Positions 2,164-41,131 of a DNA stretch of 64,000 nucleotides are shown one piece after another (position 1 is the first letter of the stretch; each line of letters begins with the position of its first letter). Under the pieces are notes generated by a model. It searched no databases. It worked only from the letters and a program-made list of their open reading frames with translations, and had not been told where the DNA came from. Source of the stretch: a virus; the IMG/VR virus record IMGVR_UViG_3300037047_000121; one strand, 5' to 3'. The position numbers and the translations under genes are program-made.

Positions 2164-2194
2164 GGGATCATCGCAGCCCCCTTCCGAGTAGCTC
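2164..2194 (+). promoter_or_regulatory. phage bipartite promoter-like motif (GGGATCATC-N13-GAGTAGCTC)
   Basis: matches repeated intergenic motif seen more than 15 times; precedes ATG 2216. Confidence 0.45.
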
Positions 2195-10750: not shown

Positions 10751-10752
10751 AC

Positions 10753-22472: not shown

Positions 22473-22501
22473 TCCTACTCGAAATGCCTAGGGGATGATC
22501 C
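22473..22501 (-). promoter_or_regulatory. phage bipartite promoter-like motif (reverse orientation)
   Basis: CCTACTC-N12-GGATGATCC on + strand, upstream of the minus-strand gene start 22426. Confidence 0.4.
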
Positions 22502-22516
22502 GGAAAAACCTGGGGG

Positions 22517-22963
22517 TCAGGAAATTTTTAGGAACCAACCCTCAGTCACGACTCCGGGCTTGAGGGTTCGTCGCTCCCCGTCCCTGTGGGCAACGTAGAG
22601 GTCGAAATCCCGAAGGTGGTAGTGGCTGCTGTTGAGGGAACGGACACCGATCAAACCCGCCTTGACCCGTTTCCCGAGCCTCAGCGCCTGAGATTCCGAG
22701 AGCCGCCCCTCAAGCTCAACCGCCCACGACCGATTCCGGCGGAAAATGAACACCTTGGGCTCACCTATCAGCCCCAGCACCTCGGGTTTCAAGTACTCCC
22801 GGGCGTTGCGGTACTCCTCTAGCTCACCCAATTCCGTTGCCAAAGCCTGGACCGGGCTGACAACTACCTCATCCGGCTCCGGCACGTCAAAAAAGTCGAA
22901 GCCCGGCGGAAAACCACCGGAATTCAGGTAACGCTGTGCCAGTTTGCGACTTGCATCCGTCAT
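22517..22963 (-). CDS. hypothetical protein (148 aa)
   Basis: ATGA overlap with stop of metalloprotease-like gene; the listed 200-aa ORF N-terminus is overlap artefact. Confidence 0.5.
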   Translation of the reverse strand: MTDASRKLAQRYLNSGGFPPGFDFFDVPEPDEVVVSPVQALATELGELEEYRNAREYLKPEVLGLIGEPKVFIFRRNRSWAVELEGRLSESQALRLGKRVKAGLIGVRSLNSSHYHLRDFDLYVAHRDGERRTLKPGVVTEGWFLKIS

Positions 22964-24981
22964 GGAAGGCTCTCGAACATCCCCTTGATGTGGCCGAGCA
23001 CGTTCGGGATAGACATGTGTGCAATCAGCGAGAGCGGGATGGTCTTCCACTCCAGTTTGGTGTCCGTTTCTGGATCCAACCAGATAAACATGATAGAGCC
23101 ATCGCGCGTCATGCTGCACTCTAGTTTATACGCTAGATCGTGGAACGTCGCCACAAACCCACTGGCGAATTCCTCCGTCACGAACGACGTGTGCTGTTCT
23201 TTCGCAAACAGTGACACGACCTTCAACAGATAGGCTCGCACGAAACCCATCAGGGTCGGATCCCCGACCTCCGCCATCAAAGCTGCCCTCACGTACCGTT
23301 GTGCAACCCTGGAAACCGTCTTCATGTCGCGCTCCTGTCCCAAACCGTTGAGCGATGCCACTTTCGGATGGCCATAAAGGGCTTTTTCCTTCGCCCCCAG
23401 AGCCCCGATATCCCGCTTGTACCAGCCGTCCCCCTCCCACACGAGATCCTTGCCCTGGAGAACGCGTCTGACCACTTCCTCGTCCACGATGCGACGAACC
23501 CCGGCACCCTCAATGATCTGAGTCGGCTTACCAGAAGCCTCCATGTACCAACCGGGCTTGCGCAACAGGGAGACCGCCTGTTCAACTACCGCACGCTTGG
23601 CCTGAGACGACCCGTCACTACCCATCAGCCCTAGTTTGTTACCAAATCGCGTTCGCTTGTAGGCCAAGAAAGCATCGATGCTGTTGTCTCCGTCGATGTC
23701 ATTGAGCCAGAAGATGTCGTACTTGGTCAACATCTCGGAGAGACTGCCGACGTGTGTCCCGATGGCACCATAAGAGGTGTGGTAAATGTCCCACATCTCT
23801 TGCTGCTGGTCGATGTCGAGATCCCGCGGAAAACCCTCTACCCAGGTCGCCCGAGGAAGATTGACCCGAGCTAGAACGGAACGCAGTGACTCCATCTGGT
23901 CTCTGGTCATGTCGTTTCCCATCACCAAATAGGCCATCGCTTCCGCAAACCCCTCCGCTGGATGCTTCGTGCCGTAATCGGAAACGGCGGGGACACGCCC
24001 CGAAGTCAGCCAGTCCGAAAATCGAGCCCTCTCTGGTTCTCGCATCTCTTTGAACCAGTACCGATGTGCCATCTCATGGGTAATCACCTCCGGAGTACTC
24101 TTGTCCGGATACATATAGACGTAGATGCGATCCTTCGATATATCGTATCGAGCCGCGACCCCTAATCCAGGACCATACTGATTTACCCCCGCCAAACTCT
24201 TAGGCTTGACGAAGATCTCACCCCGCCAGACTTGACCCAAACCCTTTTGTCGCAGCCGATGATAAGCCTCCTTGAAGGCTCGGGTGTACCAGTCTACGAG
24301 CTTGGGTTTGACCTCTGGGTCCTCTATGATGACCTTCACGCCGAACAGGTCGAACTCAGTGTCGATCTCCTCCAGGGCTGGCGGATCCAACTGCACAACC
24401 TTCTCCGCTTCCTGGTAAAGAAAACTCAGCAGATCGTCAAATGGTTTGACCAGTTTTTTCAGATCCTTGCGAAATCCGGACTTCAGGTACTCCTCCGACT
24501 TTTTCTGAGCCTCTAACCACCGTCGTCCGATCCTCTCTAGTGCCGGATATTTTTGGAACAGCGCCTCGTAGTACTGATCATTCGTAGACACATGTGACAA
24601 CTCATCTTCACTCAGGAAAGGAGCTTTCCCTGTTGCCTTTTCGACATCCCGCGCTTTGTCCTGATATTCGCCCAGATAAAACCGAGAGTCTCCTTCAACC
24701 CCAGAGGATCTAAACTCGAACCACTGGACCTTTTTCTCTACAGCTGATAGCAGATCAAGAAACTTCTTGCCCTCATCTGACCACCACTCATGCACATACA
24801 CCCCTTGGTGATGAAACTGAACCTGCTCCCGCAATCGAGACAAAAACACCCGAAACTGTTTCAGGATTGAGTCGTATTGGAGAGCACTTTGGGGCTTGGC
24901 ATTTTGGATCAGATGCATCCACCCACGTCGGATCCCATCAAGCCACTGACGGTCTAGCAGTTTTGCTTGCTTTCTAGTCAT
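22960..24981 (-). CDS. HEXXH zinc-metalloprotease-like protein (673 aa)
   Basis: VITHEMAHRYWF zincin motif; operonic with ligase gene. Confidence 0.65.
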   Translation of the reverse strand: MTRKQAKLLDRQWLDGIRRGWMHLIQNAKPQSALQYDSILKQFRVFLSRLREQVQFHHQGVYVHEWWSDEGKKFLDLLSAVEKKVQWFEFRSSGVEGDSRFYLGEYQDKARDVEKATGKAPFLSEDELSHVSTNDQYYEALFQKYPALERIGRRWLEAQKKSEEYLKSGFRKDLKKLVKPFDDLLSFLYQEAEKVVQLDPPALEEIDTEFDLFGVKVIIEDPEVKPKLVDWYTRAFKEAYHRLRQKGLGQVWRGEIFVKPKSLAGVNQYGPGLGVAARYDISKDRIYVYMYPDKSTPEVITHEMAHRYWFKEMREPERARFSDWLTSGRVPAVSDYGTKHPAEGFAEAMAYLVMGNDMTRDQMESLRSVLARVNLPRATWVEGFPRDLDIDQQQEMWDIYHTSYGAIGTHVGSLSEMLTKYDIFWLNDIDGDNSIDAFLAYKRTRFGNKLGLMGSDGSSQAKRAVVEQAVSLLRKPGWYMEASGKPTQIIEGAGVRRIVDEEVVRRVLQGKDLVWEGDGWYKRDIGALGAKEKALYGHPKVASLNGLGQERDMKTVSRVAQRYVRAALMAEVGDPTLMGFVRAYLLKVVSLFAKEQHTSFVTEEFASGFVATFHDLAYKLECSMTRDGSIMFIWLDPETDTKLEWKTIPLSLIAHMSIPNVLGHIKGMFESLP

Positions 24982-26636
24982 GTCCGGTTCCCGAAGGATG
25001 CCAAATATTTGTGAGCCACCCGTTTGCGGATGTTCTTGATCCCCCGCAGTTCGGGATGCACCCCACCCCAGAGGGACTCCTCGGAGATGGCCTTCTGGAA
25101 TTCCAGATTGATGAACTTGCCAAACACGCCAGTACGCAAGTTCTTGACGACGATGCCCTCAGCCGTCCCGGCTCCGAACGAGGAAAACCGATCCGCGAGC
25201 TTCGGCAGATCCTCGGGGGCCACCGTCCCCTTGAACACTAGCGGAACGAGCGGCGCACCTACCATCTGGCACACGGCCTCTTTCTCACCCCGAGTCAGCC
25301 ACTTGCCGGTACCCTGCCCCTGCCGATACGGAGGACGATCCTCACCCTCCATGATCTCGTACACAACCGTCATGTCCGGCCAACCGGACTCCGAGTAGGG
25401 GACGTTATCATAAGACACCGTGTGCTGGATCCGAAGGGACTCGCAAAAGAAGGTGTATCCGCCGTACAAGATGACCACCGGATGGCCATCGACCTTCTCC
25501 TCGATGACCACCTCACCCTTGAACAAACGCTCCATCTCGGAGTCCTTCAGGTAATCTTTACCCCGAATCCTCAACCCGTACCGATCAATGTCAGCATTCC
25601 CAACAACAACAGTCTCCTGTTTCGTTCGGGGGTCTACATTCCGAGCGATCGGAATCCGCCGGACACCCGTAATCTGCTTGTAACCACGAACGAAGTCGAT
25701 GACCTCGAACGGTTCCCCAGCGTCCACGGCCGTCCTGACGGAGCCAAACCGATGAGCGAAACTGATCTCCATCTCGTTGTCTTTCCGACCGGCCCAGAAA
25801 AGTTTGTACTTGCGAGGAAGACTCTCCTCTAGGAACTCAAGCACCTCGCGGTAAGCGCCCTCCTCGTCGGGACGAGCCGAGAACTGCATCATCCCCGTGC
25901 GACTCACCCAGATCTGGTCCCGAGAGTCCAGTTCCGCCGGGATCCCCAAGTCATCGAGCTTCTTGAGCAGCATCTGCAACCTCTCAAGACGCTCCAGTTC
26001 ATCGTGCATCTTGCGACGCAAGGCTGGATCATCCTCTTTCTGAGCCCTCCAGTCGAGTTCCAGGATGCGGTGCTTGAGGCTTGCCATGTTTGCATACCTG
26101 TTGCTGCCTGTATCAACGACCCAGGCTTGATCCGAGTCAAACAGAACGATCTCGTCGATCCGACTACCCTTCGACACGATGCTGCCAAACCCCCGCGCAT
26201 ACCGAGCACCCGGCGACTCTTTCCGAAGATGATCCGCCAGCAACTCCAACGCTGTCGATTTGTTATCCACCCGACGAACCCCCTTCGACTCCAGTAGCTT
26301 CGGGATCCGGTTCAACTCTTTGGCGAACGCTTTCAGCCCACTCCGCCACTCGTCCGGAGCCATCGCAGTCCGAGTCAAAAGATGCCCATGCTCAGCTAAT
26401 CCAGCCTTGCACACATACCATGGGTCACCAGACACTGGATCATCCCGATCCAAAGCAGGGGTGAGAGAACAATGCACCCACACTGGTGCCCCACCCTTGA
26501 ATTCATACCCCAGCATCTCAACCCGCACGTACCCTCGATCCCTCCACTCAGGCTCAGAGCCAAACGTAGATGCCCACCTCTGAACCAAACGATAAAAAGC
26601 ATCGAGCGCTTTTTGCTTTGTAACACCAAGTCCCAT
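24978..26636 (-). CDS. ATP-dependent RNA/DNA ligase-family nucleotidyltransferase with N-terminal extension
   Basis: motif I EEKVDGHPV (KxDG), motif IV AEGIVVKN, downstream GKFIN; 552 aa. Confidence 0.65.
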   Translation of the reverse strand: MGLGVTKQKALDAFYRLVQRWASTFGSEPEWRDRGYVRVEMLGYEFKGGAPVWVHCSLTPALDRDDPVSGDPWYVCKAGLAEHGHLLTRTAMAPDEWRSGLKAFAKELNRIPKLLESKGVRRVDNKSTALELLADHLRKESPGARYARGFGSIVSKGSRIDEIVLFDSDQAWVVDTGSNRYANMASLKHRILELDWRAQKEDDPALRRKMHDELERLERLQMLLKKLDDLGIPAELDSRDQIWVSRTGMMQFSARPDEEGAYREVLEFLEESLPRKYKLFWAGRKDNEMEISFAHRFGSVRTAVDAGEPFEVIDFVRGYKQITGVRRIPIARNVDPRTKQETVVVGNADIDRYGLRIRGKDYLKDSEMERLFKGEVVIEEKVDGHPVVILYGGYTFFCESLRIQHTVSYDNVPYSESGWPDMTVVYEIMEGEDRPPYRQGQGTGKWLTRGEKEAVCQMVGAPLVPLVFKGTVAPEDLPKLADRFSSFGAGTAEGIVVKNLRTGVFGKFINLEFQKAISEESLWGGVHPELRGIKNIRKRVAHKYLASFGNRT

Positions 26637-26804
26637 AACACACCTCCAAAAAGACGCCTACCCACTACCCACTATCACCTTTCTACCGTATCAGCCGAAA
26701 CTCAGCCGAACCCAATACTTGATTTTCTCCAGCATTTGCGGTATTTCTCTCCCCTGGAGGCACGACACCCCCCGAGAATTCCCCCTCACCCATAGGACAT
26801 CACC

Positions 26805-27314
26805 ATGACGGTAGCAGTAGCCATCCGAGACCCAGAGTCCAAGACCTCCCTGTTGGCCTCCGACCGCCGTACCACCGATGGTTCCCTTATCTGTCCCCCA
26901 TGCAACAAAATTCAGCACTCAGACTTCGCAGCTTGGACAGGAGCCGGGGACTCAGCCGACGTGCTCAAAGCACTCGACATCCTAAGCCAGCATGACCCGA
27001 TCACGTCCGATGCCAAAGCGAAAGAGACCAGCCAAGCCCTCTCCGAGATCGACTCAGATGGGATGGAACTCCTCTATGTCACCCCTACCGATATCTGGTA
27101 TTTCGACAGCGACGGAGTCTACCAAAAACTCATCTCCAACTGCGTAGCCATCGGTGACGGACTCGAATCCGCCCTCGCCATCCTATACGACCATGAATAT
27201 GACATGCCCCCTATAGCCCGAGCCATCCGAGCACTCGAAATCGCCAGCCGCATTTCTAACACATGCGGAGACGGCTACGACCTCGTAACACTTCCCAAAA
27301 ACAAGACCGTTTGA
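26805..27314 (+). CDS. HslV/proteasome-like Ntn-hydrolase peptidase
   Basis: N-terminal MT-VAVAI...DRRTTDG and ISNCVAIGDG / CGDGYD segments align with HslV; Thr at position 2. Confidence 0.6.
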   Translation: MTVAVAIRDPESKTSLLASDRRTTDGSLICPPCNKIQHSDFAAWTGAGDSADVLKALDILSQHDPITSDAKAKETSQALSEIDSDGMELLYVTPTDIWYFDSDGVYQKLISNCVAIGDGLESALAILYDHEYDMPPIARAIRALEIASRISNTCGDGYDLVTLPKNKTV

Positions 27315-27323
27315 GATAGTTCC

Positions 27324-27354
27324 GTGTCCGTTTCCTCCCAGTTGAAACGGACAC
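27324..27354 (+). terminator. perfect 11-bp stem hairpin directly after the hslV-like gene (no U-tract)
   Basis: gtgtccgtttc-ctcccagtt-gaaacggacac. Confidence 0.3.
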
Positions 27355-27932
27355 TAGCTGGGGATCCGCCCCCCGTGAGCCGATCCCTTTCTCACCATTG
27401 TTGAGGGGCTCACTCGGGGGAGAAAAAGGGGCTGAAAAATGCGAGAATCGCGAAAGTGAGCGTAAGGACTAAAGAAATCCAGACGGGGGATTTGGGTGTG
27501 ACGTGGCTTTATCTCAAACCCCCATGGAAAAAGAGGCGAGAGTGGCCGTACTGACAGTACAATCGGGGTGTGTGGGTGTGATGTTAAACGGGGGATTAGG
27601 TGAGGTGAGACATGGAAACCACTGAGATTACAAGAGAAGACATGAGACGGTTAGGTGAGTTATTTCTGGGTCTGGCGGGCGGGAAAGGAGTAAAGAGAAG
27701 TAGGCGGGAGGATACTCCGGCGCGTCGTGCTCGTTTGAAAAGGAATCGAAAGCGGCATCGGTACCTTCAGTGAGGTGGTGAGATGAGTGCTCCGAGGGAT
27801 GACGGGTGTTCCCACTAGGGGGAAAACGTCACTTGAGAATCCGAGAACGTGATTACGCGGAGTTACGAGACTCGGATGTCGGAAATGGGTGGGGTTTGGG
27901 TCTAGGCGGAACACAACGGGGGAGAAATTGAG
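27355..27932. other. about 0.6-kb ORF-free purine-rich structured region (candidate ncRNA or ori)
   Basis: no credible ORF; repeated TTAGGTGAG, GGGTGTG and GAGACATG elements; imperfect hairpin at about 27386-27430. Confidence 0.3.
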
Positions 27933-28121
27933 ATGGGTGAGACATACTTTGTCGTGGTTGTAGTGACACCTGATGGGGCACGGGCGGCTATTTTCTACAC
28001 TGAGGAGGTGGCTCGGAGGGTGTGCTCTCAGGCTGCTGAGGAGTTTGGGGTGGGGAACGTCTCGATGCATCGTCAGTGGCTTCGGGGTCGGGAGGCGTCT
28101 TTCTGGCGGGAGGGTTGCTGA
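27933..28121 (+). CDS. hypothetical small protein
   Basis: ATG with GGGGGAG RBS; TGATG 1-nt overlap with next gene. Confidence 0.4.
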   Translation: MGETYFVVVVVTPDGARAAIFYTEEVARRVCSQAAEEFGVGNVSMHRQWLRGREASFWREGC

Positions 28122-28603
28122 TGTTTGTCCAGACGCTGGGTGAGCTACTGTCTCTGGTAGTTGAGAAAGTTCGGGCTGGTGAGCATGTGGTCAACCTGGG
28201 TCAGCCTGGGACTTGTGGCGTGCTGTGTTACTCATGGGGCGAGGATGAGGCTGAGCGGGTTGAGATGTCTTGGGTGTTTTTCCGGGATGGTCGGTGGGGG
28301 GATCTGAGTCGGGTGCCTGAGTGGTTTGGGGAATCGTGGGAGACTGTGGCGCATTGGTTGGAGACTCCGAGGGGTCGGGATCGGTTGCCCTATCTGGTTC
28401 TGAGTCTCTGCTGTGCTTGTGGGAAACCGATTCCGTTTTTGGACACGATGAGTTTCAGTCACTGGCACTGGCACCCTGAGTGTCTGTTGCGGGGGTTGAA
28501 TGTCATGCGGGTTGATGGGGGTTTTCCGCTGGTGACGATGGAAGAGTTCCGGGAGATCCACAAGGCAGCGTTCGAGTCGAACAAACGCTTTCTTCAGAGA
28601 TGA
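28121..28603 (+). CDS. hypothetical Cys/His-containing protein (160 aa)
   Basis: ATG overlapping upstream stop. Confidence 0.5.
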   Translation: MFVQTLGELLSLVVEKVRAGEHVVNLGQPGTCGVLCYSWGEDEAERVEMSWVFFRDGRWGDLSRVPEWFGESWETVAHWLETPRGRDRLPYLVLSLCCACGKPIPFLDTMSFSHWHWHPECLLRGLNVMRVDGGFPLVTMEEFREIHKAAFESNKRFLQR

Positions 28604-28626
28604 AGAAGGGGAGATGGGATTAGGAG

Positions 28627-29499
28627 ATGGAGCAAATACTCTACTCACGGTCGGATGATGGGTTGTTGCCTGTACGGATCCGGGAGGAGTCGGGACAGCG
28701 GAGGTATAGCTTGGAGGGGCCTGGTGGGGTGGTGGTGTATCCCTCGGCTCGGCAGTTGTTGTGTGCGCTTACGGGGCACCCTGAGGCGCGGCATTGGCCG
28801 TTTGATCGGTATTTCCGGCAGGGTCGGTATGCACCGAAGGGTGTGAGTGCTGACTTTCCGTTGTTGGAGATGGTGGGTCCTGGTGGTTGGGCGCTGGGTC
28901 GGCCGGAGGTTTTGGCGACGAGTGGTGGTCCTCGGTGGATTCGTCGGGACTCGTTGGGGATCGACCTTCAGGCTCGGGGCAAAGAGGTTGCGAAGCTGTT
29001 GTTTCATGGTTTTGGGTCGATGATTCACTCTGCTGGGTATGACCCGGATGATGTTCTGCAGGAGGTGTACAAGGGGATTCTGATTCGGAACTCGGGGTCG
29101 TGCCCATTTGATGCTCGCAAGGCGTCGTTTGGTCACTATGTCCACATGGTGTGTCGGTGCGTACTGGCGAACTATCACCGGAAGAGTCAGCGGACACGCT
29201 CTATGGAGCAGTCTGGCATCCCTGGCTGGGATGAGAATGGCGACAAGGGGATGATAGACGCGGGTGAGACGGGTGAGCTAGTGGCTGCTGCAGGTTTGGA
29301 GGACGAAGCTGTACTGGAAGACTTCATGTCGGCCTTGGAGGATTCCCCCTTGCGGGGCATGGCTCTCAGGGTCTTGCCGTTGGTTCGGGATGGGTATGAG
29401 AGATCTGAGATTGCCGCTCAGCTTGGGGTGGCGAAGCCTACGGTCTCACGGGCGCTGACGTACATCCGGGATCAGTTCCGGCGGTGGTATGCGAACTAG
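28627..29499 (+). CDS. phage-encoded sigma-70-family (ECF-like) sigma factor
   Basis: region-2-like FGHYVHMVCRCVLANYHRK and region-4 HTH ERSEIAAQLGVAKPTVSRALTYIRDQFRRW. Confidence 0.55.
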   Translation: MEQILYSRSDDGLLPVRIREESGQRRYSLEGPGGVVVYPSARQLLCALTGHPEARHWPFDRYFRQGRYAPKGVSADFPLLEMVGPGGWALGRPEVLATSGGPRWIRRDSLGIDLQARGKEVAKLLFHGFGSMIHSAGYDPDDVLQEVYKGILIRNSGSCPFDARKASFGHYVHMVCRCVLANYHRKSQRTRSMEQSGIPGWDENGDKGMIDAGETGELVAAAGLEDEAVLEDFMSALEDSPLRGMALRVLPLVRDGYERSEIAAQLGVAKPTVSRALTYIRDQFRRWYAN

Positions 29500-29738
29500 G
29501 GATTGTTCCACGAGATGTGGTACATGAGGCAGTCGAGTTCGTCGGTGCAGGTGACGGTGTATCCCGCCTTCTGGAGATCCTCGACGAGTCCGGGAAAGTT
29601 TGGCCCTCCGATCTCGATGTGGGAGCGTTCGTTGTCCGCGGCCTCTTCGATGGCCTGGATGACCCTGTTGCGGAACAGGGTCAGGGACATGGCACGGGCA
29701 TCTTCGGTTCGCTGTCGTGCTTCCTCGGCTGTCAGCAT
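29496..29738 (-). CDS. small protein, member of three-gene tandem paralog family
   Basis: shares ..EEAA.E..S...I....F..L...L...GY.V.......W pattern with 30261 and 30539 genes. Confidence 0.55.
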   Translation of the reverse strand: MLTAEEARQRTEDARAMSLTLFRNRVIQAIEEAADNERSHIEIGGPNFPGLVEDLQKAGYTVTCTDELDCLMYHISWNNP

Positions 29739-32335: not shown

Positions 32336-32366
32336 GACTACTCTGAGAGAGGCAGAAATGATCCCG
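32336..32366 (-). promoter_or_regulatory. phage bipartite promoter-like motif
   Basis: GGACTACTC-N12-AAATGATCCC. Confidence 0.5.
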
Positions 32367-32579
32367 CTACTTTCGGTAGTCCTCGAAATCGGGGCACTTC
32401 TGAGCCTTCTCCAGCGTCATCCGGAACTCCTCCTGCGAGGGCGCGAACGTCCCCGAGAGGTAGTAGTGACGCATACGGCAGGTGAGACTCCAACTCGTCC
32501 CCGGGGTCAGATCGGACATGTCGGGCATGCCCGAGTCGAAGTCGAAGTGCTTGCACGAGATGCAGGTTCGCTCGTTCAT
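32367..32579 (-). CDS. zinc-ribbon small protein (CISC...C)
   Basis: ORF. Confidence 0.5.
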   Translation of the reverse strand: MNERTCISCKHFDFDSGMPDMSDLTPGTSWSLTCRMRHYYLSGTFAPSQEEFRMTLEKAQKCPDFEDYRK

Positions 32580-32589
32580 GGTCTCACCC

Positions 32590-32928
32590 TTACCGGGAAA
32601 GGAAGCGCAGGATCGACCGCACCTCCGTCATGGGCAGGCTGCCCAGATCCTCTCTGAGCGACTTGAGTCTGCGAGCCAGCATGTCTCGGACCTTCTGCTC
32701 GAACTCGCGAATCTCAGTTTCCGACGTGATGTGCCTCGCGTAGGGACACCCGCTCCAAAAGCCGGACCTCCCACCGACCATCTTGCTGGTTTTCCGCATG
32801 TACCGCGCCACGCCGACCGAGATCTGGGTGTCCGTCGTGCGGGTCACACGCTCGACGCCGGTGAACAGCCCCGTGGCATCGAACAGCGCCACCAGATCAC
32901 CTTTCTGCACCTGACTCAGATCGCGCAT
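32590..32928 (-). CDS. hypothetical protein (112 aa)
   Basis: ATG with GAGGGAGGG RBS, 20 nt after motif. Confidence 0.55.
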   Translation of the reverse strand: MRDLSQVQKGDLVALFDATGLFTGVERVTRTTDTQISVGVARYMRKTSKMVGGRSGFWSGCPYARHITSETEIREFEQKVRDMLARRLKSLREDLGSLPMTEVRSILRFLSR

Positions 32929-32948
32929 CGTAGTCCCTCCCTCAGGAA

Positions 32949-32979
32949 GGACTACTCGCTAGGGGTGTGAAATGATCCC
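32949..32979 (-). promoter_or_regulatory. phage bipartite promoter-like motif
   Basis: GGACTACTC-N12-AAATGATCCC. Confidence 0.5.
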
Positions 32980-32993
32980 AGGAAAGGGACTCG

Positions 32994-33359
32994 TCAGGGG
33001 CACTCGCAGGCTCCCAGCGCCTGCATCACCTTGCGCTGATCCACGTGGGAGAGCAGCGCGTAGTCCGCCTCCGCCTGCTGCCGGATCTCGACCGCCCTCG
33101 GGTCGTTCAGGACCACCCCCACCGCCATCCGGCTGAACATCTTCACCACCTGCGTCCACGACTCCACCACCTGCACGCTCACCTCGACCTCCACCGCCTC
33201 GATCCGAGGGTCGCCCTTCACAGCCTGAAGAGCCTTCCTCTTGGTGGCGAAGTGACGCGCCGTCTCGATGTGATCCGTGCTCAGGCGGTTGGCGTCCGAG
33301 TCCACGACGTTGTGGGCCACGAAAGACCCGTCGTTCCATCTCAGCACCCAGCGTCGCAT
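32994..33359 (-). CDS. hypothetical protein (about 121 aa)
   Basis: internal ATG (MRRWVLRW) with GAGGGGAGGGG RBS; N-terminal part of the listed 238-aa ORF is Arg/Gly-rich overlap artefact. Confidence 0.5.
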   Translation of the reverse strand: MRRWVLRWNDGSFVAHNVVDSDANRLSTDHIETARHFATKRKALQAVKGDPRIEAVEVEVSVQVVESWTQVVKMFSRMAVGVVLNDPRAVEIRQQAEADYALLSHVDQRKVMQALGACECP

Positions 33360-33373
33360 GGTCACCCCTCCCC

Positions 33374-33688
33374 TCAGCCGTTCGGGCAGCGGGCGAACCA
33401 GCCCGCGATGTAGGCCACAGGCACGTACAGATCCGTGAAACGACCGATTTCCCGCGTGTGGCCGAGACGATGCCGCTGTCGCAGCACCCACTGGATGTCC
33501 TCCTCGTCCCGAGCCTCCAGGTGCATCACGGGGATGATCATGAAGGACCCACCCTCGATCTCCATCATGGCGCAGTAGTCCTTGGGCCGCTCGTAAGGCA
33601 GATCCACGTCCCAGTCCACGCCCTCGACCTTCAGTTCCAGGCCGAAAAGCACGAACAGGTACTTGAGCCGATCCACGCTGAATTCCAT
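33374..33688 (-). CDS. hypothetical protein (104 aa)
   Basis: ORF. Confidence 0.5.
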   Translation of the reverse strand: MEFSVDRLKYLFVLFGLELKVEGVDWDVDLPYERPKDYCAMMEIEGGSFMIIPVMHLEARDEEDIQWVLRQRHRLGHTREIGRFTDLYVPVAYIAGWFARCPNG

Positions 33689-33700
33689 GACTGTCCCCCC

Positions 33701-33955
33701 TCAGCCCCACGAGACCGTGGTGTAGACCTGGAACATGCTCACCGAGCCCGGCACATGCTCCTCAGCCGACTTGACGCGGAAACTGCGAGCCAGAAGGCTC
33801 ACGATGTCCCGGCTCCAGAGCAGCCCCCGAAACTTGACCTGGAACACTCCGATCGGAACCAGCGCCGAGATCGCCGCCTCCACCTCCGACAGCGTGTACA
33901 CGCGCGGACTCTGATGCGCCCGCCGGGCAGTGACTCGGGCCTCGTTGGCATCCAT
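33701..33955 (-). CDS. hypothetical protein (84 aa)
   Basis: ORF after promoter motif. Confidence 0.5.
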   Translation of the reverse strand: MDANEARVTARRAHQSPRVYTLSEVEAAISALVPIGVFQVKFRGLLWSRDIVSLLARSFRVKSAEEHVPGSVSMFQVYTTVSWG

Positions 33956-33978
33956 CCGTCAGTCCCTCCTTGTCAGAA

Positions 33979-34009
33979 GGACTACTCAGGACCCCTCCGA
34001 AATGATCCC
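33979..34009 (-). promoter_or_regulatory. phage bipartite promoter-like motif
   Basis: GGACTACTC-N12-AAATGATCCC. Confidence 0.5.
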
Positions 34010-34012
34010 AGA

Positions 34013-34249
34013 TTACTCGGGGCGCTTCACCCCCCGGCCGTCCATATCCGCCGCCAGGGCCTCCAGACGGTCCGCCTGACGCCGCAGCCGACGCACCTCG
34101 TCTCGCAGCCTCTGTGCGAACGTGGGCGACGCCCTGCGGGCCTTCTGACGCTCGCGACGCTCCGCCTGACGGGCCTCCAACTCCACCCGCTTGGCCTCCA
34201 TCGCCGCAGCCACCTGAGCCTTCGCCTTGTCGAAAATCCCCATCCTCAT
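34013..34249 (-). CDS. Arg-rich coiled-coil small protein
   Basis: ORF; ATGA overlap with upstream gene. Confidence 0.45.
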   Translation of the reverse strand: MRMGIFDKAKAQVAAAMEAKRVELEARQAERRERQKARRASPTFAQRLRDEVRRLRRQADRLEALAADMDGRGVKRPE

Positions 34250-34722
34250 CCTCCTCCTCGACGCCGTTCCAGATACGAATGGATCTCAGGGGGGACGAAC
34301 AGCTTCGCCCGATCGACCTCCCCGAAAGAAAGTAGCTCCCTCACCACCGACGAAGAGACGTGTGCCACGTCGTCCCCAGTCGGAATGAACACCGTCGAGA
34401 CGCCCAGCGCCTTGTTCACATGCGCCTGAGCCATCTCAGCCTCGAAATCGCTCACCGTCCGAAGCCCCCGGATGAGCACCCTCGGCACCTTGGGCTTGTA
34501 GTCCACCAGCAGACCGTCCCAGACCTCGATCTGTACCTCCCAGCCCAGGGTCATGTCCCGGAGCATCTCCCGACGCTCCTCCGCCGGGAACAGCGGAGTC
34601 TTCTTCGGATTCGTGGCCACCAGCACCACCAACCGCGGGAACAGCGGCAGCACCTCCGCCAGTGCCCGCTGATGGCCCTTGGTCGGGGGATCGAACGTCC
34701 CCGCGTAGATAGCTAGCACCAT
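34246..34722 (-). CDS. phosphopantetheine adenylyltransferase (CoaD)-like cytidylyltransferase-family protein
   Basis: AIYAGTFDPPTKGH (H/TxGH), LIRGLRTVSDFEAE and ISSSVVREL match the CoaD pattern. Confidence 0.6.
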   Translation of the reverse strand: MVLAIYAGTFDPPTKGHQRALAEVLPLFPRLVVLVATNPKKTPLFPAEERREMLRDMTLGWEVQIEVWDGLLVDYKPKVPRVLIRGLRTVSDFEAEMAQAHVNKALGVSTVFIPTGDDVAHVSSSVVRELLSFGEVDRAKLFVPPEIHSYLERRRGGG

Positions 34723-35096
34723 GACCCCTCCCCCCTCAGCGGGCCAGCCGCCGCACCTTCTGAGCCGCCTCCTTCAGGTAGGGCAGCCACGTCCGCGGGT
34801 ACGGGCTCGGACGCGGGGCATCCGCCAACGGCGGCTCCGGCACCCGACCCTCGCTCGTCGCGAGGTACAGGGCTACGTGGGTCCGCAGCGCCCGCAGTTC
34901 CCCACCCGCCTCGTCCGCCCGCCCGCTCCTTGTACAGGAGCACCATGTCCATCAGCGACAGGGTCAGCAGCCCCTTGCCGTTGCACAGCGGGCACGTCCG
35001 CTCCACCCCACCGACCCCATCGCTCCACTCGTGCTCGCCGTACACGTGACCCTTGCCCTCACAGTACGGGCACTGGCTGACGGTCTGGCTGGACAT
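34713..35096 (-). CDS. DnaJ-type zinc-finger (CxxCxGxG x2) protein with Gly/Ala-rich tail
   Basis: CPYCEGKG...CPLCNGKG; low-complexity tail may be real or reflect a frameshift. Confidence 0.4.
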   Translation of the reverse strand: MSSQTVSQCPYCEGKGHVYGEHEWSDGVGGVERTCPLCNGKGLLTLSLMDMVLLYKERAGGRGGWGTAGAADPRSPVPRDERGSGAGAAVGGCPASEPVPADVAALPEGGGSEGAAAGPLRGEGSWC

Positions 35097-35120
35097 GGGC
35101 TCCCTCGCCCCCTCACACCA

Positions 35121-35151
35121 GGACTACTCTGTGCCTGGAGAGAGTGATCCC
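35121..35151 (-). promoter_or_regulatory. phage bipartite promoter-like motif
   Basis: GGACTACTC-N13-AGTGATCCC. Confidence 0.45.
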
Positions 35152-35159
35152 AGCGTCAG

Positions 35160-35467
35160 TCGTTCTCAGTGGGCGTGAGTCAGTCCCCATGAGCCTGACA
35201 GCATGAGCCATGAGTGTGCCGTGGTGAGTCCAGGAGTGTGGGTGGGAGCGTGTGAGAATTCTCATAGGCCATGAGACATGAGTGCATCAGAGTCTCATGT
35301 CTCACCACGAGACACCAAAACCGCTTGAAAAACTCATCAACCGGGGTCCCCATGCCGAAAAAGCCGTATTGAATCTGCATCGAAAATGAAACGCCTGAAA
35401 TCGAATCGGGTGTCTGTGGCCTAGGGGAATCCCCCTGGTGCCGCTCCCGATGCGTCTTGGCGGGCTA
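35160..35467. other. 0.3-kb ORF-free region with CATGAG repeats and perfect 10-bp hairpin (gagacatgag...ctcatgtctc, about 35270-35300)
   Basis: no credible ORF; candidate terminator or small RNA between two minus-strand transcription units. Confidence 0.35.
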
Positions 35468-35854
35468 TTACTCCTCGCTCAGGGCGGGAGCGCTCAGTTT
35501 GCCCCGGAGGTAGGCCGTGATCCGGTAGGTGGGGATGTCCCGCATGGCGATGCTCAGGGCGAGTTCCCGGGACGCGGGGTCCTTTGCCTTGTGCGCGGCC
35601 TGCAGGATCTCCCAGTCCACCTGATGCAGGCGGGTGGAGATGGTTTTGGCCAGGTTGAAGGTGGCCACGTCGGGGAGGGAGATCGTCGCGTGGAGGATCG
35701 CGGCGACCACATCACCGAAGAACCGGGGCCAGTTCATCCGGGGAACACCGGGCGGGACGCGCTCCGCGAACCAGTCGAGCGCGGTGCCGTGGAAGTCCTG
35801 AACGCGAACCGTACCGTCCTTGTGGATCGTAACGTCGTTGCCGTAGGTCGCCAT
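35468..35854 (-). CDS. hypothetical protein (128 aa)
   Basis: ORF after promoter motif. Confidence 0.55.
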   Translation of the reverse strand: MATYGNDVTIHKDGTVRVQDFHGTALDWFAERVPPGVPRMNWPRFFGDVVAAILHATISLPDVATFNLAKTISTRLHQVDWEILQAAHKAKDPASRELALSIAMRDIPTYRITAYLRGKLSAPALSEE

Positions 35855-35875
35855 GTGTTTCTACCCTCCTTACCT

Positions 35876-35906
35876 GGACTACTCTGGGTTGGTCTGGAAT
35901 GATCCC
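35876..35906 (-). promoter_or_regulatory. phage bipartite promoter-like motif
   Basis: GGACTACTC-N13-AATGATCCC. Confidence 0.5.
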
Positions 35907-36026
35907 AGATTGTTTCGGGCAGATGGCTAGAACCGCTGCGATGGATTTTTGAAACCTGGATTGGAAACTGAAGTTTTCCGATTTTGTTGTCCTGAAATTT
36001 TTGGGGCTCGAAGTTGAATCGGGGTG

Positions 36027-36320
36027 CTAGGGCTTGTTTGGTTTCCAGTGGTCGATTTCCACGTCGTAGATGCTCACGTAGGCTTCGGCTCCGTGAATGG
36101 TCACGGGGATCTCGGCGGTATAGATCATGTGGGTGTCCCCTGAGCTGTGGTCTTGTTCCTGATCCAGGGTGACGAGGATGGGGACGTTCTCTGTGATGGT
36201 TCCGTCGGGCCAGAGGACGGAGGCGGTTCCGTTCTCTTTGATGTCCTGCGACTCCCAGTGGGGGCATTCGGTGGTGTCGTAGACACCGGAGATTTTCCGC
36301 TCTGATTTGCTGAATGCCAT
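36027..36320 (-). CDS. hypothetical protein (97 aa)
   Basis: ORF. Confidence 0.5.
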   Translation of the reverse strand: MAFSKSERKISGVYDTTECPHWESQDIKENGTASVLWPDGTITENVPILVTLDQEQDHSSGDTHMIYTAEIPVTIHGAEAYVSIYDVEIDHWKPNKP

Positions 36321-36323
36321 GGT

Positions 36324-36809
36324 TCAGTTTCCCATCACGATCTTGTGGATCCCGTAGGTGTGGGGGACCACCGTGAGTCCCGCGGCTTCGAGATCCCGGC
36401 ACAGGGATTCCTCGGATGGGATCTCCGCCAGTTTCTCCCACTTGTGGATGCGTCCCTCGTACCGGGGGTCTCCGAAGCTGGCGATCTTGTAACCTGAGAC
36501 CAGGACCTTGTTCCCCCCGCTGTCTTCGAACAGGTAGACCTTGCTGTCCCGGATCGTCAGACCGTTCAGCAGACAGCCAAAAAGCGAGTCCTCGTCCTGT
36601 CCGAAACGCTCCAGGATGTCCGGGCGGATGAATTCGCGTGCGTCGGGGGTGTACCTCTCCCGGCCGCAGGTCGGGCAGTACCTCATACCCGCGCCGTTTC
36701 CGGGCTTCGGGCAGTGGCACCACTGCTCGGCGGGGGTGTCCTGTTGGAACATGGAGTTGAGGGGCAACTGCACGCCGACGATCACGGTTGTCCAATAGGT
36801 TGTTCCCAT
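36324..36809 (-). CDS. hypothetical protein with CHC...CPTC zinc-binding pairs
   Basis: ORF. Confidence 0.55.
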   Translation of the reverse strand: MGTTYWTTVIVGVQLPLNSMFQQDTPAEQWCHCPKPGNGAGMRYCPTCGRERYTPDAREFIRPDILERFGQDEDSLFGCLLNGLTIRDSKVYLFEDSGGNKVLVSGYKIASFGDPRYEGRIHKWEKLAEIPSEESLCRDLEAAGLTVVPHTYGIHKIVMGN

Positions 36810-36816
36810 GGGCAGG

Positions 36817-37242
36817 TTACTCCGTCTCCGGCAGGTTCCGGAATCGGGCGAACGAGTCGAGGGTGTACTGATCGAGGATGGCGCGGGTCAAAACGCCGCC
36901 CGTTTCTCCCCGGTCTTTCAAAAACTGGATCCCATCCCGGAGGCTGGCCTGAAGTTCCTGGAGTTCCTTGTTGGTGAGACCGTCCCCGTGGTCGAACTTG
37001 CTCCACAGGGTGCTCTTCTTGGCGGAACGATCCAGCACGAAGGCTGGTGGTTTACCTTGAGCCAGATACCCGAAGGTATCTCGGTCGAACCTGACGGTGG
37101 CGAGCAGTCCCCCGCTTTCTCCTCGGGTGGAGAGGAACAGGATCCCCTGGTTGGCGGATCTGATGAGTTCCTGGATCTCGTCCGGGGAGAGGAGGCCAGG
37201 GTGCTGGTCGTATTTGGCCCACAGGGCGCTGATGTCATTCAT
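36817..37242 (-). CDS. protein with internal tandem duplication (two copies of about 45 aa)
   Basis: internal ATG with AGGAG RBS; repeats LWAKYDQHPGLLSPDEIQELIRS..FLSTRGESGGLLATV and LWSKFDHGDGLTNKELQELQAS..FLKDRGETGGVLTRA. Confidence 0.5.
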   Translation of the reverse strand: MNDISALWAKYDQHPGLLSPDEIQELIRSANQGILFLSTRGESGGLLATVRFDRDTFGYLAQGKPPAFVLDRSAKKSTLWSKFDHGDGLTNKELQELQASLRDGIQFLKDRGETGGVLTRAILDQYTLDSFARFRNLPETE

Positions 37243-37381
37243 ACGAGGAACTCCTGGGGGTCTCCCCCGTGCAGGACGAAGGTGTCGAGGACGAGACGGC
37301 CGTCGCCCAACAGGGAAACCGCGACGTAGGTGCCTTTGTCCACGATCATGTTGTTGATCCTCGGAGACTCTCCTATCCGGG

Positions 37382-37720
37382 TCAGCCGCGGTAGTTCGTG
37401 CCACCGACTTTCGAGGTGGCCTTGTGGAACACGGTCACTCCGCCTTCGGGGCTGTGGAACATGAGCGGGATTCCCGGGGACACGTTCGGGTCGAACGGGA
37501 CCTGGATCCCCTGGTAGACGGATCCAGGCACGAGGTTGAGGAACTGCACCGTGTTGTCCTTGATCCCGGCGCAGATCATGGGGCCTTCGGGACCGATGCC
37601 GTGGGTGGCGGCCCAGACGACATCACCCGGGTGCAGATTGTCGATCTGCTGCACGTTCCAGATTTTGGAGGGGTCACTCTGGAAAGAAACGACCAACTGA
37701 TGTGTTACCTGCATGTTCAT
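37382..37720 (-). CDS. hypothetical protein (112 aa)
   Basis: ORF. Confidence 0.55.
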   Translation of the reverse strand: MNMQVTHQLVVSFQSDPSKIWNVQQIDNLHPGDVVWAATHGIGPEGPMICAGIKDNTVQFLNLVPGSVYQGIQVPFDPNVSPGIPLMFHSPEGGVTVFHKATSKVGGTNYRG

Positions 37721-37775
37721 ACCTCATCCATCCAACGTTTTCGGGTCTACTCTGAACCCTGGGGAATGATCTGAT

Positions 37776-38177
37776 TTAATCGCGCGAGTAATCCAACATC
37801 AGTTGGTGCTGCCGGAGGCTCATGGAGATGTACGAGCCCTCGGGGCTACGCATCCCGGCCTGGATCAGGGATGCGAGTTCCCGAAGTCGCGCCAGATCCA
37901 AATCCCGGTCGTGCACCTCGAACTCGTCCCCCGCCAAACGGGGCTTCAACGGCTTGTCATGTCGCCACCGTCGCCACCTGGGAAGGCGTTCGTACTCCTG
38001 AAGCCGTTTCTGGTAATTCTCCATCATTTCCTGGAGGAATTCGTCGCGGCGTCTCTGTGCCTCTCGGTCCTGTTCTTCCCAGAACAGTTCTCGGGACTCG
38101 ATCTGGGCATTCAGCCGTCTCAGGATCTGGCTGAGCATGTTCCGATCGGAGGTTGGGACATTGACGCATCCATTCAT
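37776..38177 (-). CDS. hypothetical coiled-coil protein
   Basis: ATGA overlap with upstream gene stop. Confidence 0.5.
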   Translation of the reverse strand: MNGCVNVPTSDRNMLSQILRRLNAQIESRELFWEEQDREAQRRRDEFLQEMMENYQKRLQEYERLPRWRRWRHDKPLKPRLAGDEFEVHDRDLDLARLRELASLIQAGMRSPEGSYISMSLRQHQLMLDYSRD

Positions 38178-38464
38178 GGGATGTACACCGTCTTGCATAC
38201 TGAACACGTCACGGTTTCGCCGCTCTCGTCCCAGACGAGAAGGTCGACCGCCCGGTTCATGCATCGGGGGCAACCATCGTCCTCGGGGAGCAGATCCATG
38301 TGGCCGACGATCTCGTACTTGTCGACCCCGGGGATAGGGGACAGGGATCGACAGTTGTCCCAGAAGACATGTCCCTTGTCGTCCAGCACGGTGCCCAGCG
38401 TCCCCGGGGGAACGGGGTCGGGGTCGTCCATGAGGATGAGGCGGATGCGGTCACCGGGCTTCAT
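38174..38464 (-). CDS. hypothetical protein with CPRC...CSVC
   Basis: ORF. Confidence 0.55.
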   Translation of the reverse strand: MKPGDRIRLILMDDPDPVPPGTLGTVLDDKGHVFWDNCRSLSPIPGVDKYEIVGHMDLLPEDDGCPRCMNRAVDLLVWDESGETVTCSVCKTVYIP

Positions 38465-38473
38465 GTCCTCCTC

Positions 38474-38818
38474 CTACCAGCGCAGGATTTCGCGAAGCTG
38501 CTCCCAGGTCGTCCGCTGCCGGGGCTTGAAGTTCGGCAGGGGCGGCAGTTCGTTCTTGCCGGGGAACACCTGGAGGTGCCACGTGTCCAGACTGTGGCCC
38601 ACTTCCACGACCTGGAAACCACGCTTTTCGAGTACCTCGATGACGAGGTTGTCATCGAAGTCGGAAGTCGTGCTCGGCCACCCCTGAGGGTGGAACAGAT
38701 CGAGCGGTCGTCCGAACTGGCGCTCCTGTGGGGTCCACTGGGACAGATCGACGAAAGCCCGTACTGCGGACACGTCCTCGTCCGAGATGACGCCAAGACG
38801 CATGTTGATCACTGCCAT
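38474..38818 (-). CDS. hypothetical protein
   Basis: internal ATG; weak RBS. Confidence 0.4.
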   Translation of the reverse strand: MAVINMRLGVISDEDVSAVRAFVDLSQWTPQERQFGRPLDLFHPQGWPSTTSDFDDNLVIEVLEKRGFQVVEVGHSLDTWHLQVFPGKNELPPLPNFKPRQRTTWEQLREILRW

Positions 38819-38832
38819 TCTGAGGGTTCCTT

Positions 38833-39342: not shown

Positions 39343-39361
39343 GAGATACCTCCCTCTGAAT

Positions 39362-39392
39362 GGACTACTCGGATGCCGGACGAGATGATCCC
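39362..39392 (-). promoter_or_regulatory. phage bipartite promoter-like motif (followed by a degenerate divergent copy)
   Basis: GGACTACTC-N12-AGATGATCCC. Confidence 0.5.
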
Positions 39393-39418
39393 GACGGATC
39401 GTTCCGCGGAAACTCCGC

Positions 39419-39751: not shown

Positions 39752-39760
39752 GGGTTTCCG

Positions 39761-40036
39761 TTACCGATTGGAGTTGTCGACGATGGAGTCCGGATTCGGC
39801 TTCAATATCAGCAGGAGTCGTTCGAGATGCAGTGCCTTCTGTCGTCCGTGAACGAAAAACGTGGTAAATCCGACTCGAACGCTCAGGGTACTCCAGGAGC
39901 GCCAGAAGAACCAGGAGTCGACGTCTGCCTGAATGTCGCCCTCCCACATGAGGTCCGCCTGGAACCGCACTTTCCCTTTTTCATTAGAGAGCGTGACGAT
40001 CAGATCTGGGGTTACGGTGCAGATCGGGAGAGTCAT
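39761..40036 (-). CDS. hypothetical protein (91 aa)
   Basis: ORF. Confidence 0.5.
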   Translation of the reverse strand: MTLPICTVTPDLIVTLSNEKGKVRFQADLMWEGDIQADVDSWFFWRSWSTLSVRVGFTTFFVHGRQKALHLERLLLILKPNPDSIVDNSNR

Positions 40037-41100: not shown

Positions 41101-41131
41101 GATCTACTCTGTCCGGGTTTGAGATGATCCC
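41101..41131 (-). promoter_or_regulatory. phage promoter-like motif, minus-direction half of divergent pair
   Basis: ATCTACTC-N12-AGATGATCCC. Confidence 0.5.

Follow-up and report, generated by a model that had tools for sequence, protein, structure and literature searches.

What reads the short bipartite motif that recurs ahead of genes in IMG/VR virus record IMGVR_UViG_3300037047_000121, and does this DNA encode the reader itself? The stretch analysed here (64,000 nucleotides, hereafter the window) is phage-like, in that it encodes a virion structural protein, PhoH, rIIB and an RNase II-like nuclease, while most of its open reading frames (ORFs) could not be annotated. It also holds a gene for a 290-residue protein, which a preliminary description made from the letters alone had taken for a phage sigma factor and the probable master regulator of the motif. 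Our analysis suggests that this gene specifies a phage-specific alternative sigma factor that redirects the host RNA polymerase to 19 motif-bearing promoters, a reading to which we assign a probability of roughly 0.72.

The 290-residue protein

The gene and the parts of its product are as follows.

28627..29499, + strand: sigma-factor gene, 290 residues, extracytoplasmic function (ECF)-like member of the sigma-70 family with an N-terminal extension
28627..28854, + strand: N-terminal domain, residues 1-76, compact, four beta strands and short helices; R61 and Y62 invariant
28855..28947, + strand: linker, residues 77-107, predicted local distance difference test (pLDDT) below 50; poorly conserved, of varying length in the alignment
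28954..29205, + strand: sigma region 2, residues about 110-193, with the DDVLQEVY core-binding motif and FGHYVHMVCRCVLANYHRK as the -10 recognition/melting segment
Residues 198-210: beta hairpin in the AlphaFold2 model
Residues 212-236: long helix in the AlphaFold2 model
29353..29496, + strand: sigma region 4 helix-turn-helix (HTH), residues about 243-290, the expected reader of the -35 box

The reading frame runs on the + strand from an ATG at 28627 to a TAG at 29499, as first described, and the segments quoted at that time lie in its translation at residues 144-186 (LQEVYKGILIRN...FGHYVHMVCRCVLANYHRK) and 258-287 (ERSEIAAQLGVAKPTVSRALTYIRDQFRRW). The gene is also called in a 45.6-kb Logan contig, which assembles the same sequence independently, and the start codon is backed by homologues that open at the same M-x-Q-I-L-Y-(S/T)-R.

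The Pfam model PF07638 (Sigma70_ECF) matches residues 161-286 with 25.2 bits, against a gathering score of 21.1. A profile built from 68 homologues matches one sigma factor in the Protein Data Bank, F. nucleatum sigma-H (3mzy, E=1.1e-5), over regions 2 to 4. The AlphaFold2 model, built with the same 68-homologue alignment, has a mean pLDDT of 86 and exceeds 94 in both helical domains; its top Foldseek matches are all sigma factors, namely SigH, T. thermophilus SigA in initiation complexes, E. coli sigmaE/RpoE, M. tuberculosis SigH, SigW and AlgU. A colinear alignment with E. coli RpoE pairs DPDDVLQEVY with DVPDVVQEAF, ASFGHYVHMVCRCVLANY with SAFYTWLYRIAVNTAKNY, and sets the C-terminal HTH against region 4 of RpoE. 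The helical region 2 domain of the protein carries a core-binding motif (D..QE) as well as an aromatic/basic segment for -10 recognition, and is followed by a C-terminal HTH of the region 4 type; the earlier assignment of these two regions thus finds agreement from PF07638, the sigma-H profile match and Foldseek. Besides regions 2 and 4 there are an extra N-terminal domain of about 76 residues, conserved and with no recognisable fold assigned to it, and a connector of about 50 residues with the beta hairpin and the long helix; the Pfam scan gave no hidden Markov model (HMM) match to region 1.1 or region 3. We conclude that the protein is very probably a highly divergent member of the sigma-70 family with an ECF-like architecture.

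Several results weigh against the reading proposed above, and those that concern the protein are given here. NCBIfam model TIGR02937 (sigma70-ECF superfamily) aligns with residues 133-285 at 27.0 bits, below its cut-off of 42.9, so that membership of the ECF class (group 4), as judged by HMM, is borderline, with PF07638 over its threshold and TIGR02937 under it. The search with sigma-family HMMs that the preliminary description had proposed as a check came out divided: PF07638 passed, while the Pfam Sigma70_r2 model gave no match to the protein and Sigma70_r4_2 alone reached only E=0.21. PHROGs returned only weak sigma matches (phrog_1740, 'RNA polymerase sigma factor', E=0.0015, and weaker), and hhalign against the single RpoE sequence gave a probability of 2%. 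At the level of sequence the similarity to cellular sigma factors is thus weak, and even the exhaustive profile search described below reached only the protein's own closed family and never the cellular ECF sigma factors.

These HMM results bear on a different identity for the protein, that of an HTH DNA-binding regulator (a LuxR/GerE-like activator or repressor) that merely resembles sigma region 4 and does not replace the host sigma factor. Several generic HTH Pfam families do match residues 246-282, and the sigma-specific region 2 and region 4 models fall short of significance. However, the LuxR-type matches are confined to the C-terminal HTH, itself a homologue of sigma region 4, and span only some 50-70 residues there, whereas sigma factors align structurally over 95-120 residues including the region 2 helical bundle. 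The whole-protein ECF model also passes its cut-off, the sigma-H profile match covers both domains, and the best-conserved part of the family is region 2 (DVLQEVY, FGHYVHMV) and not the HTH. We regard a plain HTH regulator as very unlikely and continue to treat the protein as a sigma factor.

Distribution of the family

A word-indexed search returned 329 homologues, nearly all full-length, with 40-55% identity, all metagenomic and on contigs of up to 528 kb. The exhaustive profile search, made against 1.84 billion cluster representatives, found 790 proteins at E<=1e-3, including 361 at E<=1e-30. Among 185,579 bacterial and archaeal species genomes, relatives occur only on three short contigs of metagenome-assembled genomes, whose taxa are mutually unrelated, and these matches are probably binning contamination. 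IMG/VR holds 52 homologue loci, many on contigs of 180-618 kb, and the sole GenBank phage match is an unannotated 485-kb metagenomic 'uncultured phage'. From these searches the family appears to be phage-restricted and essentially absent from cellular genomes. A search of the literature for the family and the motif found no description of either; what it did find treats the sigma factors of huge or jumbo phages in general terms.

The repeated motif in the window

Repeat finding in the window yields a bipartite element with the consensus yGGGATCATyyC-N-TyCnGAGTAGTCC. The strict pattern GATCAY-N10-20-AGTAG has 18 matches, against 0.26 expected; when up to two mismatches are allowed there are 19 credible sites, and with a threshold of 14 bits a weight matrix recovers exactly the same 19, while shuffled sequence yields about 0.1. 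The invariant core positions are GATxA and GAGTAG, and the spacer from GGGATCAT to GAGTAG is 14 nt long (13 in five sites) and variable in sequence. The promoter-like sites are listed below with their scores.

2164..2191, + strand: GGGATCAT-N14-GAGTAG, 34.0 bits
5445..5472, + strand: 34.7 bits
22475..22502, - strand: CGGATCAT variant, 25.2 bits; intergenic
32338..32365, - strand: 36.6 bits; intergenic, start codon 21 nt past GAGTAG
32952..32979, - strand: 34.5 bits; intergenic
33982..34009, - strand: 38.0 bits; intergenic
35124..35151, - strand: GGGATCAC variant, 31.7 bits; intergenic
35879..35906, - strand: 38.9 bits; intergenic
37747..37773, - strand: 13-nt spacer, CAGATCAT, 32.5 bits; intergenic
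39365..39392, - strand: 36.5 bits; intergenic
41104..41131, - strand: divergent pair with the site at 41132, 35.7 bits
41132..41159, + strand: divergent partner of the preceding site, 33.1 bits
42233..42260, + strand: 38.0 bits
42754..42781, + strand: 31.4 bits
44333..44360, + strand: 35.0 bits
45043..45069, + strand: 13-nt spacer, 38.9 bits
57552..57579, - strand: ATGATCAT variant, 21.4 bits; upstream of the RNB/dsRBD nuclease gene
60802..60828, - strand: weakest site, GGGATGAC variant with 13-nt spacer, 17.6 bits; upstream of an operon with a virion structural protein gene
62087..62113, - strand: 13-nt spacer, 28.5 bits

Seven sites lie on the + strand (2164, 5445 and 41132-45043) and 12 on the - strand (22502, 32365-41131, 57579, 60828 and 62113), and every one of them faces a Shine-Dalgarno sequence and start codon that follow in the same orientation. 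Intergenic placement was judged with independent gene calls, which cover 18.6-39.5 kb and eight of the sites. All eight are wholly intergenic, and 7 of the 11 intergenic gaps of at least 40 nt hold a site; the start codon follows the GAGTAG box by 21-31 nt in seven of the eight and by 48 nt in the other. The element thus consists of two boxes at a fixed spacing, placed upstream of and in the same orientation as genes and present above chance, as in a bipartite promoter, and we predict that it is a sigma-dependent promoter. Read as GGATCA-N16-AGTAG, this predicted promoter has the geometry of ECF-type promoters. The preliminary description had placed the motif before more than 20 genes downstream of the sigma gene; it does precede genes, but the count is 19, and the sites flank the sigma gene on either side and occupy both strands. 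No site occurs between 22502 and 32338. The sigma gene is therefore not preceded by the motif, as had been noted before, and neither its operon nor the 6 kb ahead of the gene holds a copy.

Could the motif have a role other than that of a promoter, whether in ending transcription, in RNA processing or as a translational operator, as a repeat for packaging or replication, or as a mobile mini-element? The promoter role is predicted from sequence, and the bases past GAGTAG are often TCCTTC.., complementary to the AAGGAGG ribosome-binding site, so that a role at the RNA level is conceivable. Against this stand the two conserved boxes with a non-conserved spacer of fixed length, free of dyad symmetry, stem-loops, T-runs and flanking direct repeats, and the invariable position of the motif upstream of, and co-oriented with, the Shine-Dalgarno sequence and ATG of the next gene. 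Moreover, the back-to-back pair at 41104-41159 sits exactly between divergent operons. A non-promoter function seems to us highly improbable, and the sites are treated below as predicted promoters.

The complementary bases, in the fuller form TCCTTC(TGA), stand 10-15 nt before the AAGGAGG (for example at 32928-32951, 33955-33981 and 42261-42290), so that, given a sufficiently early transcription start, the leader could fold into a hairpin that hides the ribosome-binding site. Directly downstream of the site at 57552-57579, the - strand gene at 55777-57528 encodes 583 residues with an RNB (RNase II/R) domain and two double-stranded RNA-binding motifs; given this site ahead of it, it may provide an RNA degradation function under phage control. 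T4-type late promoters were also sought in the window: TATAAATA with at most one mismatch has 2 sites, against 3.3 expected.

The motif in related phages

The link between the protein and the motif is a comparative one, for which loci holding sigma homologues (L numbers) were scanned for motifs. Identities below are those of each sigma protein to that of the window.

528-kb contig (L002/L003), 51-53% identical: GGATCATC-N-GAGTAG, 7-9 sites per 20 kb, each before a gene
188-kb IMG/VR contig (L005), 51%: same motif as L002, 7-9 sites per 20 kb around the sigma gene, and 11 exact matches to the full pattern in the contig as a whole
L060, 48-49%: AGATCATC..GAGTAG, 6 sites
L061, 47-50%: GGCTCAGA..GGCGTAGT (GGCTCA..CGTAG), 8 sites
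L062 and L006, 51% and 45-46%: GGCTTACTT..GCGTAGATC (GGCTTA..CGTAGA), 4 and 3 sites
L016, 41-43%: GGCTTAC..GGAGTAGTC (GGCTTA..AGTAG), 3 sites
L007, 42-49%: GGTAAC..AAGTAGGT (GGTAAC..AGTAG), 5 sites
L011, 36-39%: GGGGTTCC..CCGTAwAG (GGTTCC..CGTAwAG), 7-9 sites
L012, 37-39%: GGGGTTCAAC..CCGTATAG (GGTTCC..CGTAwAG), 3 sites

A bipartite motif of the same geometry, GGnnnn-N16-nGTAG, is shared by no fewer than ten distinct genomes of related phages. In nearly all loci the first box begins 22 nt (23 in L012) ahead of the nGTAG box, and the GTA core is kept; this retained core of the -10 box fits the near-invariant region 2 segment FGHYVHMV..NYHRK. The classes of motif track the relatedness of the sigma proteins, since L062 and L006 are mutual best matches (55%), L011 and L012 share 49%, and the proteins of the window, L002 and L060 share 49-53%. 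The recognition helix of region 4 reads L(V/I)(G/A)(K/R)(T/M)L in the GGTTC class, against (T/S)(V/I)SRA(L/M) in the window, L061, L062 and L006; the helices of L002 and L060 depart from the latter pattern. Scanning of all IMG/VR contigs with an exact 15-base pattern gave multiple hits only on contigs of 53-64% G+C. Several of these encode proteins up to 72% identical to proteins of the window, and one is the sigma-bearing 188-kb contig. On these comparative grounds the 290-residue protein is likely to read the repeated motif.

The remaining points on the unfavourable side belong here and to the following section. The link is comparative and not direct. Three genomes with an identical -35 box have the recognition helices TVSRAL, TMSKAY and VTAKAL, and such poor conservation speaks against a simple residue-to-base code, an idea that the few genomes in hand leave unsupported. 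Simple scans gave no clear motif at the homologue loci L013, L015, L020 and L026. Furthermore, only 64 kb of a possibly much larger genome are in view, and a phage RNA polymerase or further sigma factors may lie elsewhere.

Some of these points would also suit a promoter read by another factor, be it an alternative sigma factor of the host, the host primary sigma factor remodelled by a phage co-factor, as by MotA/AsiA in T4, or a phage polymerase or other factor encoded outside the window; the sigma-like protein would then have other targets. The link to the motif is comparative, the recognition helix differs among genomes that share a -35 box, and the relatives' contigs of 188-528 kb could encode further transcription factors. 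However, the motif is lineage-specific and shifts between related phages in step with sigma relatedness, and the near-invariant region 2 segment pairs with the near-invariant GTA core across the family. The -10 box GAGTAG is unlike that of primary sigma factors, and the same relatives have a canonical TTGAC(A)-N17-TAnnAA at the sigma gene. No RNA polymerase subunit, second sigma factor or MotA/AsiA-like protein was detected among the 85 ORFs of the window. We consider another reader unlikely, if less so than a plain HTH regulator, and retain the phage sigma factor as the preferred reader of the motif.

Some signals at the related loci were set aside. The enriched 8-mers GGGGTCA and GGGATCA in L012, L015, L016 and L020 are scattered coding-sequence words and not promoters, the GGTCT..GTCTA (L009) and GGTTC..CGCAC (L033) signals are tandem or long repeats, and GTTCG..ACCAT in L027 represents tRNA T-arms. 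Three distant homologues, which share the core sigma only (31-55% identity over regions 2-4), stand in loci with other repeated elements: CGATTCTTGGTTAC-N15-CTCCGTGGTG in L034 (12200-19200, 13 copies, with an ATG about 7 nt after the motif in most), GTTGTGTAAC-N13-CGTGCTACACT in L018 (450-19100, eight copies, one before a tRNA) and TAGTACCGAG-N-GAACTAACC in L032 (11500-15300, six copies). The 528-kb contig L002 (Ga0208769_1000001) has a Cas12f/TnpB-like gene at 325-1791, 8 kb from its sigma gene, a tandem array of GCCAGTGC repeats at 15900-16100, and a second promoter-like class, TTGACT-N12-14-TAGATTCTGTGGG, with seven copies grouped near the sigma gene at 9960-12240, of which one stands 40 nt ahead of the ATG of that gene. 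None of these three features (Cas12f/TnpB-like gene, TAGATTCTGTGGG promoter class and GCCAGTGC array) was found in the window. The - strand genes at 48857-50524 and 62478-63404 of the window encode proteins with relatives at 72% and 53% identity on the motif-rich IMG/VR contigs 3300023257_000008 and 3300022890_000067, and could be used to assemble the clade and to place the window in a complete genome.

Expression and surroundings of the sigma gene

In seven relatives (L002, L060, L061, L062, L006, L009 and L016) an element (CC)GTTTTCTTGAC(A)-N17-TAGGAA/TAAGAA/TACAAC lies 100-220 nt upstream of the sigma gene. It has the sequence of a textbook primary-sigma promoter (TTGAC(A)-N17-TAnnAA), and its presence there indicates that what the host primary sigma factor recognises is a promoter of the ordinary kind, distinct from the repeated motif. 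An invariant leader box, (T)CAAACC..CAC..AAAA.GA, stands about 60 nt ahead of the relatives' start codon and is a candidate RNA element, operator or second promoter. The conserved order of this non-coding region is CACCGTTTTC, the promoter, about 100 nt of variable sequence and the CAAACC leader box, an architecture seen in L002 (9811-9990), L060 (5108-5290), L016, L062, L061, L009, L006 and L007. The corresponding features of the window are as follows.

27395..27545, + strand: putative early control region of the sigma operon, with a degenerate TTGAGG -35-like box at about 27405 and the leader box TCAAACC..AAAAAGA at 27513-27545
27933..28121 and 28121..28603, + strand: two small ORFs (62 and 160 residues) packed directly upstream of the sigma gene, sharing its G3/T3 codon bias

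The control region is placed by alignment with the relatives' TTTTCTTGAC(A)-N17-TAGGAA promoter and CAAACC box. The window keeps the leader box and has at the promoter position only TTGAGG and a poor -10 box. A consensus scan for a host-type promoter around the sigma gene gave nothing useful, and in the window as a whole the canonical sigma-70 pattern TTGAC-N14-19-TAnnnT has 0 matches against 3.6 expected; with these results the list of unfavourable points is complete. Taken together, the comparison supports the view that the host holoenzyme expresses the sigma gene early, with the stronger case in the relatives and the weaker one in the window. Rfam recognised no known RNAs in the window, the leader box included, and no tRNAs were found there.

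Independent gene calls agree on the two upstream ORFs, which are probably co-transcribed with the sigma gene and are not conserved beside it in relatives; neither the 62-residue product nor the Cys/His-rich product of 160 residues has a Pfam match. A possible ORF of 53 residues begins at 27612, between the leader box and the sigma gene. An anti-sigma factor or other conserved partner was sought by tblastn of eight neighbour proteins against 60 related loci, and none proved to be conserved beside the sigma gene.

The sigma gene lies on, or within about 1.5 kb of, a sharp change of sign in G+C skew (22500-29500, with the switch near 27320). In the window the skew is negative upstream, at about -0.2 to -0.37, and positive across the sigma operon, at +0.25 to +0.39; the A+T skew flips too. 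This is independent of gene orientation, the + strand gene at 26805-27314 being C-rich; third positions in the sigma operon are extremely biased, with G 0.50, T 0.28, C 0.15 and A 0.06. The same switch is found at the sigma gene of seven relatives (L002, L060, L061, L062, L006, L016 and L007), and may accordingly mark a replication origin or the end of the genome that enters, or is transcribed, first.

At its 3' end the sigma gene meets a convergent - strand gene (29496-29738), the stop codons of both being formed by the CTAG palindrome at 29496-29499 with no terminator between them. Transcripts driven on the - strand by the motif (promoters at 32365 and beyond) would hence run antisense into the sigma gene, and such interference could act as a late shut-off.

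A proposed transcription programme

We propose that the host holoenzyme would transcribe the sigma operon early, from a host-type promoter in the non-coding stretch at 27.3-27.9 kb, which is canonical in relatives and degenerate in the window. The sigma protein would then bind the host core RNA polymerase through region 2, as its homology suggests, and, as judged from the comparison of phages, region 4 would read the -35 box GGGATCAT and region 2 the -10 box GAGTAG, 16 nt past GGATCA. With a start a few nucleotides past the -10 box, the transcripts would have short leaders taken up almost wholly by the ribosome-binding site. At least 19 transcription units would be switched on, among them many small genes on both sides of the sigma gene, the RNase II-like nuclease and the operon with the virion structural protein. 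The cascade from early to middle or late genes envisaged in the preliminary description thus gains support from the sigma family, the comparative motif link and the host-type promoter of relatives, and is weakened by the degenerate promoter of the window itself; the role of master regulator is one that we infer.

A more tentative proposal, which we think has the odds against it, concerns the N-terminal domain. It may lend this phage-only family a function beyond those of ordinary ECF sigma factors: it might displace the host sigma factor from core polymerase or outcompete it there, touch the DNA on the upstream side of the -35 box, or respond to a signal from the host or the phage. The family would also be a natural library of orthogonal sigma/promoter pairs in which -35 boxes (GGATCA, GGCTCA, GGCTTA, GGTAAC, GGTTCC) and -10 boxes (AGTAG, CGTAG, CGTAwAG) are modularly recombined.

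Other genes in the window

Two vault models match the 872-residue ORF at 52593-55211 (- strand): PF11978, the shoulder domain of the major vault protein, with 75 bits (E=6e-21), and PF17795, a vault repeat, with 34 bits; a vault domain is unusual for a phage. A C-terminal RNA-ligase domain is found in the 552-residue product of 24978-26636 (- strand). The + strand gene at 26805-27314 (169 residues) has a weak proteasome-like match, and is plausibly the source of a PHROG match to the HslV peptidase family that falls somewhere in the window. Further genes encode rIIB, PhoH, an HD phosphohydrolase, a cytidylyltransferase, a nucleoside hydrolase, a 3'-5' exoribonuclease and, at a place not localised, a KOW-motif protein. 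No DNA polymerase was seen among the window genes.

Comparison with known systems

The region 2 and region 4 core resembles that of cellular ECF sigma factors such as E. coli sigmaE, M. tuberculosis SigH/SigL and B. subtilis SigW (PF07638), and the predicted promoters likewise resemble theirs in having a G-rich -35 box (GGnTC versus GGAAC), a spacer of about 16 nt and a short -10 box with a GT core. A co-transcribed cognate anti-sigma factor and positive autoregulation are typical, though not strictly defining, features of ECF systems. In contrast, no conserved co-transcribed anti-sigma factor was found in the 60 related loci, and no autoregulatory motif lies upstream of the sigma gene. The N-terminal domain of about 76 residues with its linker, and the connector of about 50 residues with a beta hairpin between regions 2 and 4, also set the window protein apart. 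The two groups are not joined by a library-wide profile search, and the window family is practically absent from cells.

Among phage systems, T4 gp55 and SPO1 gp28 and gp33-34 offer themselves for comparison. The T4 late sigma factor gp55 has a region 2-like domain only and reads a single TATAAATA box with the sliding clamp. Unlike gp55, the window protein has a region 4 and a predicted bipartite target promoter, and TATAAATA sites do not exceed expectation in the window.

The sigma factors of phiEco32 (gp36) and Salmonella phage 7-11 drive middle and late genes with the host core polymerase (PMC4331800). As in those phages, so far as a comparison by description and not by sequence can show, the window and its relatives combine a highly divergent phage sigma-70 protein with predicted promoters of two kinds, well-conserved intergenic phage-specific ones that recur and host-type early ones (PMC4331800). 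However, the sigma gene of phiEco32 and 7-11 is also served by phage-specific promoters, whereas that of the window lacks the motif, and their sigma factor is accompanied by an inhibitor of the host holoenzyme, whereas no conserved partner was found beside the sigma gene of the window. The window family differs from them, too, in its conserved N-terminal domain and in the many members that lie on contigs of 180-618 kb.

The group 2 jumbo phages are related to T4, encode sigma factors instead of polymerases and carry rIIB (PMC7824862). The window and its relatives similarly have rIIB and PhoH and no detected RNA polymerase subunit, a likeness of gene content and not an assigned membership. The jumbo-phage sigma types described are a minimal single-HTH type and an RpoD-like type (PMC7824862), and the window protein, which is ECF-like with a novel N-terminal domain, is neither.

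If correct, the reading gives a testable transcription programme for a clade of large uncultivated phages whose genes are mostly unannotated, in which one regulator and an easily recognised promoter delimit the transcription units. It also defines a sigma family of about 800 clusters, mostly 'hypothetical' in public annotation, which offers a natural data set for learning how ECF-type sigma factors encode specificity and whose lineage-specific promoters of the same geometry could supply orthogonal sigma/promoter pairs. As the phage sigma cascade itself is textbook knowledge, the surprise for the specialist is modest; what is new in comparison with the systems above is a phage-restricted family with an extra N-terminal domain and a predicted, testable regulon.

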